From a virus (Duplodnaviria > Heunggongvirae > Uroviricota > Caudoviricetes), in the IMG/VR virus record IMGVR_UViG_2698536401_000003: a stretch of 33,079 nucleotides of DNA; one strand, written 5' to 3'. Below the pieces are notes generated by a model that did no database searches, had not been told where the DNA came from, and saw nothing but the letters and a program-made list of their open reading frames with translations. Shown one piece after another: positions 22,127 to 33,079 of this stretch (within the stretch, counting starts at the first letter, position 1; every line of letters starts with the position of its first letter). A program made the position numbers and the translations under genes.

Positions 22127-22282
22127 TTACTCCTCAGATTCGTAAGCTGTGAAGACAGCGACCTCCGTCTGGCCGGTTCGGATTCGTACCTCGCAGAGGT
22201 CTTTCCTCGTTACCAGTGCCGTCACTATGACGGTTAAACAGATGACGATCAGGGCGATTAACATCGCCTTTTGCTGCTTCAT
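22127..22282 (-). CDS. hok: Hok family type I toxin (host-killing membrane peptide)
   Basis: 51 aa MKQQKAMLIALIVICLTVIVTALVTRKDLCEVRIRTGQTEVAVFTAYESEE, near-identical to the chromosomal HokD/RelF-type Hok peptide as recalled. Confidence 0.9.
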   Translation of the reverse strand: MKQQKAMLIALIVICLTVIVTALVTRKDLCEVRIRTGQTEVAVFTAYESEE

Positions 22283-22339
22283 AGCCTGCTTCTCCTTGCC
22301 TTTCGGCACGTAAGAGGCTAACCTACGTTTGTGTAGCAT
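22127..22339 (-). CDS. mok: Mok (modulator of killing) overlapping reading frame, in-frame N-terminal extension of hok
   Basis: 70-aa ORF starting 19 codons upstream of hok in the same frame, as in mokC/hokC-type loci. Confidence 0.65.
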   Translation of the reverse strand: MLHKRRLASYVPKGKEKQAMKQQKAMLIALIVICLTVIVTALVTRKDLCEVRIRTGQTEVAVFTAYESEE

Positions 22340-22400
22340 AGATTGGGCCTCAGATTAATGTTAAGCGTCTTGCCGGACGCGTAATGTTAACTGGGGCTTT
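22300..22400 (+). ncRNA. sok: Putative Sok antisense RNA region (approximate)
   Basis: Inferred from hok/mok locus architecture, where the antitoxin RNA is antisense to the mok start region. Candidate -35/-10 TTGCCT-17 bp-TAACCT on the plus strand near 22294-22322. The boundaries are not determined. Confidence 0.3.
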
Positions 22401-22620
22401 TCTCTGTCTGCCTTACAGTGGCATGCCCGAGGCAGACAGCCTCAAGCACCCGCAACAATCTTACCGACACCGATAAGAAAACGCTATTTTTTATTGCCAG
22501 AACCTTCTGCCCAGGCTAATGTATCCGCGTCAGAACGGCGCAATGCGCTCGCCTGAGATACGTTTACTTGTCATTGGTGGCAACAGATAACGGCAATTGT
22601 TGTTTCTGTTTGTTTCCTTC

Positions 22621-26666: not shown

Positions 26667-27092
26667 TCAATGCACCACCACGGCATTTCCCGCTGGGCCG
26701 CCACGATTCATCTGATTGAAACCAGCAATCGCCACTGCGACAAAATCATCAGCGTCTCTCACCAGTCGTTCCCGCGTCTCCACCAGTTCCCGAAAATAGG
26801 CTGAACTGTGGCTGCGCATTCGGGCCACCAGCAGAGGTGGCATTGCTTTTTCGATCGCTGGTAACAACGCCTGAATTTTTTTAACCGCATCAGGAGTGTC
26901 TTTCTCCACCCAGCGGAAAATTTTCTGGGTGTTACGGCCCAGGGCTTCCGGATGGCTGTCGTCGTACAATTCCGGGAACGTCATACCGAGTTCGAAATAC
27001 GCTTTGGTAATTTTCGCAGCCGGTACTTTCTCGCCGTCTGGATGCGCCCAGGCATTCATCGCCATGCGGATGTGTTCATGCTTGATTTTCAT
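26667..27092 (-). CDS. YdaT-like protein (CII-position regulator of Rac-type prophages; assignment by size/synteny)
   Basis: 141 aa, starts MKIKHEHI; lies between the cro-like gene and the replication initiator. Confidence 0.5.
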   Translation of the reverse strand: MKIKHEHIRMAMNAWAHPDGEKVPAAKITKAYFELGMTFPELYDDSHPEALGRNTQKIFRWVEKDTPDAVKKIQALLPAIEKAMPPLLVARMRSHSSAYFRELVETRERLVRDADDFVAVAIAGFNQMNRGGPAGNAVVVH

Positions 27093-27348
27093 GAATCAAC
27101 TCCGGCGCATTTGATGTGTTAACCTTACATCCAACAGGTAAACCGTCGGTTGGGTTAGGGTATTTATCAGGGCGCAATTCATGCGGAGTCACTCCCCAGC
27201 CAAGCGCCTCACATGCTGGAATGACCTCCTCCGCAGGAACTCGTTTTTTAAACCACCCACTTATAGTTTGTGGAGTTTTACCAAGACGACGCCCTAACTC
27301 TGATTGGCTCATTATCGACAGGATTTTCACTTGAGTACTTTTTTGCAT
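27076..27348 (-). CDS. Cro-like HTH regulator (YdaS-like)
   Basis: ORF 27076..27360 trimmed to the ATG at 27348, which is preceded by a GGAGG SD; HTH MSQSELGRRLGKTPQTISGW; divergent from the repressor gene. Confidence 0.7.
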   Translation of the reverse strand: MQKSTQVKILSIMSQSELGRRLGKTPQTISGWFKKRVPAEEVIPACEALGWGVTPHELRPDKYPNPTDGLPVGCKVNTSNAPELIHENQA

Positions 27349-27360
27349 GTTTCCCTCCAA

Positions 27361-27474
27361 ACTTTACGATGGCACCGATAATTACAAATTTAATTTTAAT
27401 TTTCAACTTCTATTTGTAATGCCACTTATCAATTTTTTCTGTAGGATTGCAGGATTAGTTTTCGAGGGGTGGTG
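27361..27474. promoter_or_regulatory. Immunity-region intergenic operator/promoter region (OR-like)
   Basis: AT-rich 114-bp divergent intergenic region containing TTACAAATTTAATTTTAATTTT...ATTTGTAA inverted-repeat elements; a related motif recurs at 28636-28674. Confidence 0.5.
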
Positions 27475-27867
27475 ATGATCTTTGTAAAACGCCTTCAGCA
27501 GGTGTTGCAGGAATTGAATATAAACCAGTCAGAGCTGGGAAGACGTCTTGGTGTAAAACCCCAATCCGTGCAAGGTTGGTTGAAAGGCGTGATGCCAAGA
27601 ATGGATAAATTGGAAAAATTAGCAGAGCTCTCACAACATCCCGTCCATTGGTTCTTTATGGAAGAAGAAACTCTCGGCGATAAGATGGCTGTATCCAGTA
27701 ATGACAACCAACCGCAACTTACAGAACAACAACGAAAAATCATATCGCTTTTAGATGAGTTACCTCAAAGCGACGCAGAGCAGATCATTCGGGATATGGA
27801 GCAAAAACGCGATTTCTATAAACGCAAACTTGAAGAGTTACTGCGGCAGAAAAACAAAACTGCCTGA
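27475..27867 (+). CDS. CI-like prophage repressor (HTH XRE family; RacR-like position)
   Basis: ATG at 27475 after GAGGGG; HTH NQSELGRRLGVKPQSVQGW; divergent from the cro-like gene. Confidence 0.8.
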   Translation: MIFVKRLQQVLQELNINQSELGRRLGVKPQSVQGWLKGVMPRMDKLEKLAELSQHPVHWFFMEEETLGDKMAVSSNDNQPQLTEQQRKIISLLDELPQSDAEQIIRDMEQKRDFYKRKLEELLRQKNKTA

Positions 27868-27913: not shown

Positions 27914-28273
27914 TTATAATCCCACCAGGCTTTCCAAGGGGATACCAAATTGATTATGAAGACGGCGAATCATTGGTAACGTAAGGCTTCTGGTGCCATT
28001 CAACACCTCGTAAACCCGATTTTTTTTTCCAATTGCGGGTTCCAAATCTTTCACGGTCAGCCCCTGCTGTTCCATGCGAAATCTTATAGCTTCAATTGGG
28101 GATGGTGGCTCAATGGGATAATGTTTTTTTTCATATTCCGCTATTAGCAAACACATCACCTCAAAGAAATCCCCCTCAGGCGTGTTAATTTCCGGCTCAT
28201 TGTCGAACATGGGCTCAACAGCACGCAACGCGGCTTCATAATCTTGCTCTGTACGAATAGGTTTGATGTTCAT
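27914..28273 (-). CDS. higA: HigA-family antitoxin (HTH XRE)
   Basis: 119 aa; C-terminal HTH KNRVYEVLNGTRSLTLPMIRRLHNQFGIP, like HigA; start overlaps the higB stop. Confidence 0.75.
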   Translation of the reverse strand: MNIKPIRTEQDYEAALRAVEPMFDNEPEINTPEGDFFEVMCLLIAEYEKKHYPIEPPSPIEAIRFRMEQQGLTVKDLEPAIGKKNRVYEVLNGTRSLTLPMIRRLHNQFGIPLESLVGL

Positions 28274-28275
28274 GC

Positions 28276-28578
28276 TTACTCCGGTTCAATGGTATCAGCA
28301 TCAATGGCATCGTATTCCTTGTGGTTTCCGATGAATTTAACAAATACCCATCCTCGCTGATACGCAATTGCAACAATTAAACGGTAATGATTACCTTTTA
28401 TGTTGAATACCACGCGCCGGTTTTTCAATATACTGGCCGTTCGGTATTGTGCCTTAATGTCTGCCGGGCTTTTCCAGTCAGCCTTTGCTGCCTCATCCAC
28501 CCATGCCCTTAGCGGTTGTTCTGCATCGGGATTCTCCGCCCAAAAATCCCTAAGCGTTTTAACTGAGATGATCTTCAT
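28276..28578 (-). CDS. higB: HigB-family toxin (RelE/ParE superfamily mRNA interferase)
   Basis: 100 aa; NHYRLIVAIAYQRGWVFVKFIGNHKEYD resembles the HigB core (xxxRvvamvffesqkcyIrevmtHkEYD); toxin-first order typical of higBA. Confidence 0.8.
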   Translation of the reverse strand: MKIISVKTLRDFWAENPDAEQPLRAWVDEAAKADWKSPADIKAQYRTASILKNRRVVFNIKGNHYRLIVAIAYQRGWVFVKFIGNHKEYDAIDADTIEPE

Positions 28579-28690: not shown

Positions 28691-28853
28691 CTCCCCGCCC
28701 CACAGAACGCAGGGCAATACTTCGAGTTACCAGGCAGTGGTCAGGGGTTAAGTAGCCAGCCCGAGGCGTAAGAACATGACGGCAGGGTTCAACTTTAACT
28801 ATGCAGCAGGTTTTTGTTCCGCTACCCCGGCGTTAAGGGGAAATGAGGTCAAC

Positions 28854-29009
28854 ATGGATACTATCGATCTTGGCAACAACGAATCTCTGGTATACGGCGT
28901 GTTTCCCAACCAGGACGGCACATTCACCGCGATGACGTATACCAAAAGCAAAACGTTTAAAACCGAAACTGGCGCGCGTCGCTGGCTGGAAAGAAACTCA
29001 GGCGAGTGA
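28854..29009 (+). CDS. Small hypothetical protein (51 aa; YdaF-like by size and position)
   Basis: ORF 28776..29009 trimmed to the ATG at 28854 (GAGG SD); stop overlaps the start of the next small gene (GTGATATGG). Confidence 0.55.
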   Translation: MDTIDLGNNESLVYGVFPNQDGTFTAMTYTKSKTFKTETGARRWLERNSGE

Positions 29010-29408: not shown

Positions 29409-30047
29409 ATGGAATTTAAAGATTTACCAATATCAATACAGGAAATGGTCGCTGATGTGATTCGCTCGCAACTGGCGCGGAACCCAATGGTATTAGTAGA
29501 TAAAGTGTTCATCAGAAATTTATCAAATCATGTCCGCAATTCTTTTACCGGACTGTATTCAGATTCGTTCACAAACAATCATTGTGTAGAAAATAAAGCA
29601 AAGCCCATTGCAGAAACGATAACGCAAAACATCAATACGAAACAAACCGAAGAAGAAATTGACCAGTTTACCCGAGATACTGGCTTAAAATGCAGGAAAG
29701 AAAAATCGCCATATGCGGGGAATATGTTTGTTTATGACAACCTTATCCGAATTCGTGGCGAAATTCCGACTGAATACCTAGCAAGAATTCACCAGGCATT
29801 ACTTAAAAATCTGGAAACGGAAGTATTTGATGGCAATACCAACGGCTCCTTCGTGGTGTCAACTCTAGCAAAAGAGTGGGATACAGATAATCGCTGGAAT
29901 GTTGCCACATGGTTATTCAGCAACAAAGCTGCTGCCCTGGAAGCTGCGGCCTGTATTTGCGACCTGCTAAGGACAGACCGCAAATACAACCTGGATGTGT
30001 ATAGCTATATTTATGCTGAACACTATCCGCTATGGATTAACTGGTAA
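29409..30047 (+). CDS. Hypothetical protein (212 aa) in a relatively AT-rich block
   Basis: ATG preceded by ACGAGG; no motif I recognise; convergent with the following minus-strand gene, no spacer. Confidence 0.6.
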   Translation: MEFKDLPISIQEMVADVIRSQLARNPMVLVDKVFIRNLSNHVRNSFTGLYSDSFTNNHCVENKAKPIAETITQNINTKQTEEEIDQFTRDTGLKCRKEKSPYAGNMFVYDNLIRIRGEIPTEYLARIHQALLKNLETEVFDGNTNGSFVVSTLAKEWDTDNRWNVATWLFSNKAAALEAAACICDLLRTDRKYNLDVYSYIYAEHYPLWINW

Positions 30048-30257
30048 TTACAAAGCTGCACCAGCAGGGCCACGGCGACCAGCGCCACGATTGTAATCAA
30101 TGATGCCATTATAAAGCGCATTATTTAATTTATCGTCGAATGCCGATTCTGTGAGCCCTAGCTCTGAATGAGTTTTTAATAACCCTGATTGCCTGAGTTG
30201 ATTAACCAGGCATTCAATCTGTTTTTCAATAATCGGATGTATTGGCTTGTTTGGCAT
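30048..30257 (-). CDS. Hypothetical small protein (69 aa), transcribed against the early-left operon
   Basis: ORF 30048..30329 trimmed to the ATG at 30257, preceded by a strong SD AATGGAGGATAAA. Confidence 0.55.
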   Translation of the reverse strand: MPNKPIHPIIEKQIECLVNQLRQSGLLKTHSELGLTESAFDDKLNNALYNGIIDYNRGAGRRGPAGAAL

Positions 30258-30649
30258 TTTATCCTCCATTGAAGTTACTGGTTGAGAATGGAGACCACAC
30301 GTGACAGCGTGTTGTCGTGCGCCGGACACGGATAAGAATCCGGCACTGACAGTTTACTGAAAGAATATATCCCTGAAAAGTCAGGGCATAACGCGAAAGC
30401 GCACGGCGGAGGTGTCTTTTCCTTAGAAGGCTTGTCGTTAGATTTCTTCGATTGTGTGCTTCCGGTTGTGGCACTCCGCGAAATGGCGCGGCGGTAAGTA
30501 TGGCGGGGTTATTCCTTACCCCCATTGGTGGCACCGGGTTGTCAGGTTGACCATACGCCTGAGTGACAACCCCGCTACAACACTCCATGTTGATTTGTAC
30601 CTTTGGCGGCATCAGTTTCATTGCTGGCTGATGTCCGCCCTTTTTAAAG

Positions 30650-30809
30650 TGAATTTTGTGATGCGGTGAATGCGGCTGAGCGCACGCGGAACAGTTAAAA
30701 AGCGATTAGTTCCCCCGTATCGGGTGTTTATGGGTTTCCCTGTATCCGGCGTTAATTGTTAACTGGTTAACGTCACCTGGAGGCACCAGGCACCGCATCA
30801 CAAAATTCA
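30650..30809. repeat. Perfect 19-bp inverted repeat pair flanking a 122-bp segment
   Basis: TGAATTTTGTGATGCGGTG (30650-30668) and its exact reverse complement CACCGCATCACAAAATTCA (30791-30809); the downstream arm ends about 18 nt before an SD (GAGGA) and the ATG at 30827. Confidence 0.7.
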
Positions 30810-30826
30810 TTGTTGAGGACGCGATA

Positions 30827-31009
30827 ATGGAAACGTTATTACCAAACGTTAATACGTCTGAAGGTTGTTTTGAAATTGGTGTCAAAATCAGTAACCCAGT
30901 ATTTACTGAAGATGCCATTAATAAGAGAAAACACGAACGGGAGCTATTAAATCAAATATGCATTGTTTCAATGCTGGCCCGTTTACGCCTGATGCAAAAA
31001 GGACGCTGA
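30827..31009 (+). CDS. Hypothetical small protein (60 aa)
   Basis: ATG preceded by GAGGACGCGATA; stop is 2 nt before the next ATG. Confidence 0.5.
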   Translation: METLLPNVNTSEGCFEIGVKISNPVFTEDAINKRKHERELLNQICIVSMLARLRLMQKGR

Positions 31010-31011
31010 CA

Positions 31012-31203
31012 ATGAATACAGCATTTGCACTCGTTCTGACAGTTTTTCTTAATACAGGCGAACCAGTCGATCTTGTTATTGGTATACATGACTCAATGAA
31101 AGAATGCATGGCTGCCGCAGCGGAACAGAAAATTCCCGGCAACTGTTATCCGGTTGATAAAGTTATTCGCATGGACAATAACGAAATCCCGGCAGGTCTT
31201 TAA
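31012..31203 (+). CDS. Hypothetical small protein (63 aa) with N-terminal hydrophobic segment
   Basis: ORF 30958..31203 trimmed to the ATG at 31012 (AAGGA SD); MNTAFALVLTVFLNTGEPV... looks like a signal peptide or TM helix. Confidence 0.5.
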   Translation: MNTAFALVLTVFLNTGEPVDLVIGIHDSMKECMAAAAEQKIPGNCYPVDKVIRMDNNEIPAGL

Positions 31204-31295
31204 AACAGTTCCGTAATAAACATCCGATTTCATTCTTATATGCCAGCAATGGCAGGGATTTGTTCACCCTTAAATCTGTAATGAGGTAAAACAAA

Positions 31296-33079
31296 ATGAG
31301 TAAAGTCTTTATTTGCGCCGCCATTCCGGACGAACAGGCAATAAAGGAAGAAGGTGCAGTCGCTGTAGCCACTGCCATTGAAGCCGGTGATGAACGTCGC
31401 GCCCGCGCAAAATTTCACTGGCAATTCCTGGAACATTATCCGGCTGCTCAGGACTGCGCTTATAAATTTCTTGTTTGCGAGGATAAACCCGGTATACCCC
31501 GCCCTGCCCTCGATTCCTGGGATGCTGAATATATGCAGGAAAACCGCTGGGATGAGGAGTCTGCTTCCTTTGTACCGGTTGAGACTGAATCCGATCCGAT
31601 GAACGTCACTTTTGACAAGCTGGCCCCTGAAGTACAGAACGCTGTCATGGTTAAGTTCGACACATGTGAAAACATCACCGTTGATATGGTGATTAGCGCA
31701 CAGGAATTGTTGCAGGAAGACATGGCAACATTCGACGGACATATCGTTGAAGCATTGATGAAAATGCCAGAAGTTAACGCCATGTATCCGGAGCTTAAGC
31801 TGCATGCCATCGGGTGGGTTAAGCATAAATGTAAGCCTGGTGCCAAATGGCCCGAAATTCAGGCAGAGATGCGCATCTGGAAAAAACGTCGCGAAGGTGA
31901 ACGCAAGGAAACCGGAAAATACACGTCTGTTATTGATCTCGCCCGCGCCAGAGCCAATCAACAGAACACTGAAAATTCAACAGGAAAAATCAACCCGGTC
32001 ATTGCTGCCACTCATCGCGAATACAAGCAGACATGGAAAACGCTGGATGAAGAACTGGCCTACGCTCTGTGGCCTGGCGATATTAATGCCGGAAACATTG
32101 ACGGCAGCATCCATCGCTGGGCAAAAAATGAAGTTATCGACAAAGATCGCGAAGACTGGAAGCGCATTTCCGCATCAATGCGCAAACAACCCGATGCCGT
32201 CCGCTACGACCGTCAGACTATTTTTGGCCTTGTCCGTGAGCGTCCGATCGACATTCACAAAGATCCCGTGGCACTGAACAAATACATCACTGAATACCTG
32301 GCGACAAAGGGCGTGTTTGAGGATGAAGAAACAGACCAGAACACTGCTGATATTCTCCAGCCGTCAGCAGCACAAACTGATGCAGTGGAAACTGAAGTAT
32401 CTGATACCCAAAAAAATGAAAGCACGCTGGAAACTGAACCATCTGTAGAGCGTGAGGGGCCGTTCTACTTCCTTTTCACCGATAAGGATGGCGAAAAATA
32501 TGGTCGTGCAAACAAACTTTCTGGTCTGAATAAGGCGCTGGCTGCAGGGGCTACTGAAATCACGAAAGAAGAATATTTTGCCCGCAAAAACGGCACATAC
32601 TCAGGTTCACAACAAAATACTGGTGCATCTGACACGATCGCACAACCAGAGCCGGTAAAAGTTACCGCTGACGAAGTAAACAAAATTATGCAGGCAGCCA
32701 ATATCAGCCAGCCTGACGCCAATAAGTTGCTTGCTGTATCACGTGGTGAATTTGTTGCAGGGATTAGCGACCCGAATGATCCGAAATGGGTGAAGGGGAT
32801 TGAAACCCGCGATTCAGTGAATCAGAACCAGCAAAAAACGGAACAGAACGACCAGAAAGCGGAACAAAACAGCCCAAATGCGTTACAAAACGAGCCAGAA
32901 ACGAAACAACCTGAGCCAGTAGCGCAACAGGAACCGGAAAAAGTCTGCACCGCCTGCGGTCAGAGCGGTGGCGGCAACTGCCCTGATTGTGGCGCGGTGA
33001 TGGGCGACGCAACATACCAGGAAACATTCGATGAAGAGAATCAGGTTGAAGTTCAGGAAAATGATCCGGAGGAAATGGA
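31296..33079 (+). CDS. recE: Exodeoxyribonuclease VIII (RecE)-like, N-terminal portion; 3' end beyond the window
   Basis: Plus-strand frame open from the ATG at 31296 to the window end, absent from the ORF track because it has no stop. Translation contains [30 protein letters not shown], matching the recalled Rac RecE segment [30 protein letters not shown]. Confidence 0.7.
   Translation, partial: [594 protein letters not shown]

Follow-up and report, generated by a model that had tools for sequence, protein, structure and literature searches.

The window, by which we mean the whole stretch of 33,079 nucleotides of viral DNA that was analyzed, contains a long untranslated region at 30330-30826 that is followed directly by the gene of the cell-division inhibitor DicB. 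This gene matches Pfam PF05358 (DicB) with 127.6 bits and is named dicB in relatives, and the next gene is ydfD (DUF1482, PF07358, 81.2 bits). The gene ydfA (DUF1391, PF07151) lies 5′ of the untranslated region, and further upstream there is a divergent pair of regulators of the Cro/CI type. A Megablast search of phages, plasmids, and complete E. coli genomes matched the region to the dicF-dicB part of lambdoid prophages. Matches were found in 4751 of the 5426 E. coli genomes, with a best full-length identity of 94%, and the DNA identity to dicF-dicB regions of E. coli prophages and phages is 82-94%. Furthermore, a four-sequence alignment of the window, K-12 Qin, phage Tritos, and the closest chromosome (mean column identity 87%) shows that 30300-30826 is homologous along its whole length to the K-12 ydfC-dicF-dicB untranslated region. 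From gene content and homology, 30330-30826 is probably the untranslated center of a dicBF-type early-left operon in a Qin-like lambdoid prophage. The dicBF operon has been under study since 1988-1990, and the locus itself is already known; the window carries another copy of it.

An earlier note on this DNA had stated that no credible ORF covers 30330-30826, and this holds: no CDS is annotated in the homologous stretch in the RefSeq records of K-12 and the closest relative, and the overlapping ORFs (120 aa on the minus strand; 71 aa and 30 aa on the plus strand) are short and unconserved, so that a hidden gene was rejected. However, the note had recognized neither the gene at 30827 as dicB nor the DicF-like sRNA in front of it, and its statement that no role was established was too pessimistic for a dicBF operon, on which there is published work. 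The coordinates of the features are collected in Table 1.

Table 1. Genes and RNA features of the dicBF-type locus in the window (positions in nucleotides; RNA helices are predicted).
Feature	Position	Strand	Basis or remarks
Cro-like regulator, YdaS/HTH protein	27076-27360	-	domain match
DicA-like regulator, HTH_3 repressor	27469-27867	+	domain match
ydfA, DUF1391	28776-29009		Pfam PF07151
Upstream long hairpin	30387-30470 (arms 30387-30409 / 30448-30470)	+	homologue of the K-12 precursor-cut hairpin
DicF precursor 5′ domain, hairpins	30476-30570	+	near-invariant columns, predicted helices
DicF-like sRNA	30592-30645	+	divergent single-stranded 5′ part; terminator hairpin 30605-30639; U-tract 30641-30645
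P1, 5′ strand	30641-30668	+	perfect arm 30650-30668; extension 30641-30649 includes the terminator U-tract
Enclosed core	30669-30790	+	122 nt, structured
P2	30671-30676/30682-30688	+	bulged A30684
Pseudoknot	CAGUUAA 30692-30698 with P4 loop UUAACUG 30759-30765	+	permutation test
Variable region of core	30699-30749	+	
P4	30750-30755/30767-30772	+	
P5	30776-30780/30786-30790	+	
P1, 3′ strand	30791-30819	+	perfect arm 30791-30809; extension 30810-30819 includes SD GAGGA 30815-30819
dicB, cell-division inhibitor gene	30827-31009	+	Pfam PF05358 DicB; named dicB in relatives
ydfD, DUF1482, next operon gene	31012-31203	+	Pfam PF07358

Several other features of the window were seen in passing. Between the DicA-like repressor and ydfA, beside the operon promoter region, there is an insertion with a HigB toxin gene (PF09907, 113.7 bits) and an HTH antitoxin-like gene, at 27914-28578 on the minus strand. 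A 212-aa ORF at 29409-30047 (+), which is absent from K-12, adjoins a 74-aa ORF at 30048-30272 (-), which is antisense within the early-left operon and is a "hypothetical protein" in RefSeq relatives; neither ORF has a Pfam match. Farther away, a sok antitoxin RNA of a hok/sok-type module is found at 22277-22451 (-) (RF01794, 116 bits), and a tRNA-Gly(TCC) gene at 16093-16165 (-).

The inverted repeat in front of dicB consists of two arms of 19 nt, TGAATTTTGTGATGCGGTG at 30650-30668 and CACCGCATCACAAAATTCA at 30791-30809, which are 100% complementary and have 122 nt between them. No other perfect inverted repeat in the window with a loop of ≤300 nt is as long; the runner-up has 14 nt. When the window was shuffled 200 times with its dinucleotides preserved, the longest repeats obtained were of 10-15 nt, and none of the 200 shuffles reached 19 nt. 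The repeat finder thus reproduces the repeat that had been described by the earlier note. The GTTAAC palindromes reported inside it are also present, as two copies (30759-30764 and 30767-30772), and the right arm is close to the dicB start as claimed, with 17 nt to the ATG at 30827 and the SD GAGGA in between.

What is the function of this repeat? In the predicted fold of the plus-strand RNA, which has a free energy of -74.5 kcal/mol (z = -5.7) compared with a weaker -62.6 kcal/mol for the minus strand, the arms form a closing helix, P1, with 21 contiguous pairs and up to about 28 bp with one bulge. G30649·U30810 and A30648-U30811 pair beyond the perfect core, and after the bulge the terminator U-tract and its neighbors are predicted to pair with UUGAGGA, which contains the dicB SD. 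We gathered relatives of the element by a motif scan of viral and genome collections. The length of the closing helix in these relatives is bimodal, either 4-10 bp (short-stem copies) or 18-30 bp (long-stem copies). In 18 distinct long-stem relatives, the 21 pairs of P1 are 98.9% paired, and 11 of the pairs show compensatory changes on both sides. Sliding the 3′ strand by 1-3 columns reduces the pairing to only 31-42%, and no shuffle gave covariation as high as that observed. Wobble G·U pairs, counted from the per-pair table, occupy 29 of the 378 stem cells (about 8%). Since these cells would be mismatches as DNA or on the minus strand, they argue for a reading of the repeat as RNA from the plus strand. 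In the four-way alignment, the K-12 arms have two wobble pairs side by side, U·G and G·U; the Tritos and Z1324 arms have one G·U each, and all of the changes in the arms are G·U-compatible on the plus strand. In other genera, arms of the same length can have a wholly different sequence, as in L037 and L096, which carry CAACAGACCUUGCAAUGCAGUG; the arms of Citrobacter L124 and Lelliottia L129 read AGCAGG(C/U)UUUAAGGUG(C/U)GGUG. Judged from these sequence comparisons, the repeat acts as RNA on the plus strand.

The DicF-like sRNA ends directly upstream of the perfect arm. A search with Rfam RF00039 at a relaxed threshold matched 30592-30640 with 38.7 bits (E = 1.4e-6), which is below the gathering score of 48; for comparison, the K-12 copy scores 76.7 bits and the Tritos copy 72.5 bits. 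The sRNA lies between the ydfC-side untranslated region and dicB, and has an intrinsic terminator at its end, which was detected by the terminator scan. The equivalent of the preceding domain, 30476-30570, is the part that is removed by RNase E to give short DicF (PMC10448788). The window copy differs from K-12 DicF, among whose known targets is ftsZ, in the single-stranded 5′ part and in the loop, and further relatives have another 5′ part again (GCUGUGUGUAGUC...). Because the 5′ parts differ among relatives in this way, DicF-type sRNAs seem to come with exchangeable seeds. The DicF terminator motif is found directly upstream of 18 of the 25 long-stem copies (17 by sequence pattern, plus L053, CTCGCCCTTTTT, by eye) and is absent in seven. 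Since these seven copies have no DicF-type terminator, the long stem is not solely for trimming of DicF.

Two further observations were made near the sRNA. In L004, L006, L019, L052, and L075, a short-stem STnc100-like domain immediately precedes a DicF-like seed with its terminator (…GCUGUGUGUAGUCUUGGCGGUACCAG…UUUUU), which is the reverse of the order in the window. This suggests that the domain is also usable as the 5′ part of DicF-type sRNA precursors. The hairpin at 30371-30386, CCCUGAAAAGUCAGGG, resembles the lambda boxB sequence, with CCACCUCGCCUGACGUGG at the equivalent place in some relatives; no boxA was seen by eye beside it, and the hairpin is also detected by the minus-strand terminator scan.

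In K-12, a DicF precursor of 190 nt begins at an RNase III cut that was located by primer extension 137 nt upstream of DicF, and the 53-nt DicF requires RNase E (PMC10448788). A 72-nt DicF species is a product of RNase III (PMC5069750, PMC9438474), and the dicA-dicF-dicB intergenic region appears in a review as one of the classical RNase III substrates (PMC2777011). When these ends are mapped on the window by alignment, both fall into long helices. The 5′ end of the 190-nt precursor maps between 30459 and 30460, within the upstream hairpin, which forms a 23-bp helix in the consensus fold of 35 relatives with only one-sided, G·U-compatible changes. The 72-nt DicF (53 + 19 nt) would have its 3′ end at 30659, the tenth nucleotide of the left arm. 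We infer that the left strand of P1 would be cut between 30659 and 30660, that is, between TGAATTTTGT and GATGTGGTG; this placement is derived from the lengths of 53 and 72 nt and the annotated DicF ends and may be in error by a few nucleotides, but would still be inside the arm. From the rule that the cuts leave a 2-nt 3′ overhang (PMC6212723), the partner cut would be expected between 30801 and 30802. The two pairs between these cuts, G30658-C30801 and U30659-A30800, fit the in vivo rule of at least one G-C among the two pairs between staggered cuts (Altuvia et al. 2018, PMC6212723), conditional on the inferred cut position. Furthermore, P1, with 21 and up to 28 pairs, has the double-stranded length of about two helical turns that marks an RNase III substrate. 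Given this mapping, we consider it likely that the inverted repeat is the counterpart of the K-12 RNase III site from which the long form of DicF arises.

The 122 nt enclosed by P1 are themselves structured. The Rfam model of STnc100 (RF02076) matched 30638-30859 over its full length with 37.0 bits and E = 4e-6, below the gathering score of 47. The K-12 element scores 34.4 bits with the same model, while bona fide copies, which belong to the short-stem type, score 68-74 bits. In an alignment of 41 sequences, RNAalifold recovered a closing helix whose inner GGUG/CACC is invariant, an AAU linker, P2 with its bulged A, and P5, and nine of the 19 pairs have compensatory changes. P4 was missed by RNAalifold; it was seen by eye, with changes on both sides in five of the six pairs among the 18 long-stem copies. 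The loop of P4 is complementary to the strand that follows P2, and this pseudoknot covaries: over 37 loop types, the mean ΔG with the true partner is -8.06 kcal/mol, compared with -4.28 ± 0.37 kcal/mol for permuted partners, and none of 20000 permutations was as low as observed. It is not in the consensus structure line of Rfam STnc100 shown by cmscan. From sequence and predicted structure, then, the window element is related to STnc100/PasD, at a score below the Rfam threshold.

Related elements are numerous. The motif CACCNGGAGGCACCNGGCAC, which covers P5 and the start of the 3′ arm, is found in >120 viral contigs, and elements with the same P2 variant as the window come from Escherichia, Shigella, Citrobacter, Klebsiella, Raoultella, Enterobacter, Lelliottia, Buttiauxella, Pantoea, Arsenophonus, and Phlomobacter. 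L082, which at first sight has a copy with no left arm, carries a recombinant or truncated element, with the left half replaced. STnc100-like domains are frequent in tRNA-containing polycistronic RNAs. L030 has three tandem STnc100 copies at 342-1253, with a terminator on each, followed by a tRNA gene; in L178 (phage P7), at 2001-2116, and also in phage D6, a copy of the core is located in the ban operon, which is controlled by C1, with tRNA genes on one side and terB on the other. A tRNA-like core was rejected, as ARAGORN finds only the tRNA-Gly at 16093 in the window, and matches of the region to Rfam snR55, tsr32, Entero_CRE, and mascRNA, with E values of 0.66-7.2, were put down to chance.

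Both DicB and DicF inhibit cell division and are toxic. The mechanism that we propose for the expression of dicB past the DicF terminator is as follows. The operon would be transcribed from left to right from a repressor-controlled promoter upstream of ydfA, and the transcript would fold into the hairpin at 30387-30470, the DicF-like sRNA with its terminator (30592-30645), and P1 with the pseudoknotted domain. Most transcripts would end at the DicF terminator. P1, with 21-28 bp, would form only in read-through transcripts, by pairing of 30641-30668 with 30791-30819, closing the 122-nt domain and masking the ribosome-binding site of dicB. RNase III would then cut both long helices. The upstream cut would give the 190-nt DicF precursor, and the cut in the repeat would separate the dicB-ydfD mRNA from the 72-nt DicF, whose 3′ end would be near 30659. 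The staggered partner cut, at about 30801/30802, would free a structured RNA of about 142 nt and leave dicB with a leader of about 25 nt, relieving the occlusion of the SD. The output of toxic DicB would thus need both terminator read-through and processing by RNase III, as in the lambda N leader.

Taken as a whole, such a mechanism, with RNase III helices in the untranslated center of dicBF, is in our judgment the likely one. Of its parts, the helix, and for the K-12 homologue also its cleavage, have been demonstrated or published; where the partner strand is cut, what becomes of the core, and how translation responds are proposals. In partition-function folding, the probability that GAGGA is unpaired rises from 0.15 before the cut to 0.79 in an mRNA that starts at 30802, where the AUG is paired in a new hairpin. 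The intermolecular duplex left over after the cut is predicted to be weak, with a ΔΔG of about -7 kcal/mol. The effect of cleavage on dicB could be destabilizing instead of activating, and occlusion of the SD is not universal, since the helix of the kil-type relatives stops right in front of it. A model in which terminator read-through, RNase III cutting, and SD exposure are coupled is directly testable.

A broader reading puts the core at the center. On this view, a pseudoknotted RNA domain of the STnc100/PasD class would be widespread in phages and have its own function, and the repeat would be its closing helix in lengthened form. Where dicB, a kil-like gene, or another small early gene follows, the helix would have grown to a length suited to RNase III. 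The domain would either be cut out of the operon transcript, as a stable RNA about 142 nt long, or sense a factor, and would thereby gate the host-killing genes. We regard this reading as doubtful; if it is true, the "known sRNA family" is a modular processing and regulatory cassette across Enterobacterales prophages.

Could the core instead be a sensor, a riboswitch-like aptamer or a protein-binding domain that controls dicB and kil-type genes or the access of RNase III? Its compact multi-helix junction, with invariant nucleotides and a pseudoknot whose covariation was not equaled by permutation, would suit such a role, as would its position directly 5′ of the SD of small, often toxic genes: an SD and a start codon follow 24 of the 25 long-stem copies, and the genes are dicB, kil-like ones (MIAHHFGTDE...), and other small ORFs. 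However, a P1 of 21-28 bp is too stable for ligand switching, the identical type of core is found in terminated stand-alone sRNAs, as their 5′ part, and between tRNA genes, and there is no match to any Rfam riboswitch family. We know of no ligand or protein candidate, and we consider a sensor unlikely.

It is quite unlikely, too, that the repeat and core are an independent sRNA gene of the STnc100/PasD type, with its own promoter and acting in trans through Hfq, in which the stem is no more than a structural closing helix and whose place before dicB is incidental. PasD, a relative of STnc100, is an Hfq-bound sRNA that is visible on Northern blots (PMC8550237; bioRxiv 10.64898/2026.05.13.724894), and the window element, which is matched by the STnc100 model from end to end at a low E value, has P1, P2, P4, and P5 in common with the bona fide copies. 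Nevertheless, its score stays 10 bits short of the gathering threshold. A consensus scan found no internal promoter-like site in 29900-31300, which is weak negative evidence, and the element starts 5 nt after the U-tract of the DicF terminator. A terminator is found downstream of 43 of 71 short-stem copies and of 0 of 25 long-stem copies, where the SD and start codon of a gene come next in all except one. Because the element failed the curated threshold and has no terminator, we have not filed it as a member of STnc100.

A role of the repeat as DNA, as the terminal repeat of a MITE-like element, as the edge of an invertible segment, or as a palindrome that binds a protein or forms a cruciform, is very improbable. 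A perfect 19-bp inverted repeat around a short segment has the look of such an element, and related cores do occur at many loci, as for a mobile module. The sequences of the arms, however, are not conserved between loci and covary pairwise, with G·U pairs that DNA would not tolerate as matches, and the minus-strand fold is the weaker one. The inner segment was found in the forward orientation in 47 cases and inverted in none, with seven unscorable copies that have no exact 3′ motif, and neither a target-site duplication nor a recombinase is associated with it. On the 47:0 orientation, the covarying arms, and the frequent G·U pairs, an invertible segment or a MITE was rejected. Thus, among the alternatives that the earlier note had offered, the RNA stem beside the ribosome-binding site, as a cis-acting leader, is favored, by the covariation, the wobble pairs, and the RNase III processing in K-12, and the DNA readings are not. 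We give almost no credence to a small protein made within the repeat from a 30-aa ORF at 30670-30762: its ATG, in GGUGAAUGCGG, is conserved in all GTGAATGCGG-type copies, and in the window, K-12, and Z1324 the frame, in spite of indels, is not interrupted before a TAA within the P4 loop, but in 42 distinct copies the frame ends vary widely and the peptides diverge by frameshift, there is no SD, the AUG is at the P1/P2 junction, and the nucleotide conservation is explained by P2 pairing with compensatory changes.

An RNA helix that is cut by RNase III is thus the reading that we prefer for the repeat. What may be new here is that the dicB leader is structurally akin to STnc100/PasD, along with the covarying pseudoknot, the dichotomy of short and long stems, and the divergent copy of DicF. 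The first three of these points are unlinked in the literature consulted, and they tie a processing site from 1990 to a prophage sRNA family that has been discussed recently, which should be of moderate interest to specialists in sRNA and phages. Annotation of the stretch should name the untranslated region between dicF and dicB and mark in it a DicF-like sRNA and two RNase III helices. In RefSeq records and in the phage records H81-H119, the element is left blank or lies under "hypothetical protein" calls, one of them named "FNIP repeat-containing protein"; these gene calls over the element are probably spurious.

How does the locus compare with known systems? The closest is the dicBF operon of K-12 Qin, the subject of Ragunathan et al. 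(2023) and reportedly of Faubladier, Cam, and Bouché (1990), which has the same order of the repressor pair, ydfA and following genes, a long untranslated region with dicF and its terminator, dicB, and ydfD. The upstream RNase III hairpin is present in both, as is the inverted repeat, with two positions changed to G·U pairs in K-12. Besides the divergent DicF copy, the differences are at ydfC, followed by the 212-aa ORF and the 74-aa minus-strand ORF, and in the variable part of the core, which is 12 nt longer in the window.

With STnc100/PasD, the window element shares the closing helix with inner GGUG/CACC, the AAU linker, P2 with the bulged A, the P4 hairpin, the P5 hairpin of the form CCNGG-AGGCA-CCNGG with the 3′ strand of P1 immediately after it, and the pseudoknot between J2/3 and the P4 loop. 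The link between STnc100 and PasD has already been drawn in a 2026 preprint (bioRxiv 10.64898/2026.05.13.724894). The window element differs in a P1 of 21-28 bp instead of 4-10 bp and in its sub-threshold score; it is without a terminator or single-stranded seed of its own, and it is intercistronic rather than a stand-alone gene.

In rRNA precursors and T7 early mRNAs, as is proposed here, a long helix is formed from the flanks of a structured RNA, and units of a polycistronic transcript are separated, although the scale and the cargo differ. RNase III cuts both strands of the rRNA and T7 helices, leaving 2-nt 3′ overhangs.

The lambda N leader is also from an early-left lambdoid operon, and, as proposed for dicB, it has a long RNase III-sensitive structure immediately 5′ of the SD of the next gene, the cleavage of which is proposed to open the ribosome-binding site; the lambda RNase III site was reportedly described by Kameyama et al. 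in 1991 and by Wilson et al. in 2002. The window has no sequence similarity to the N leader, no nut site, and no N protein. Unlike the helix of the N leader, the helix in front of dicB would also set the 3′ end of an sRNA, and it encloses a conserved folded domain.
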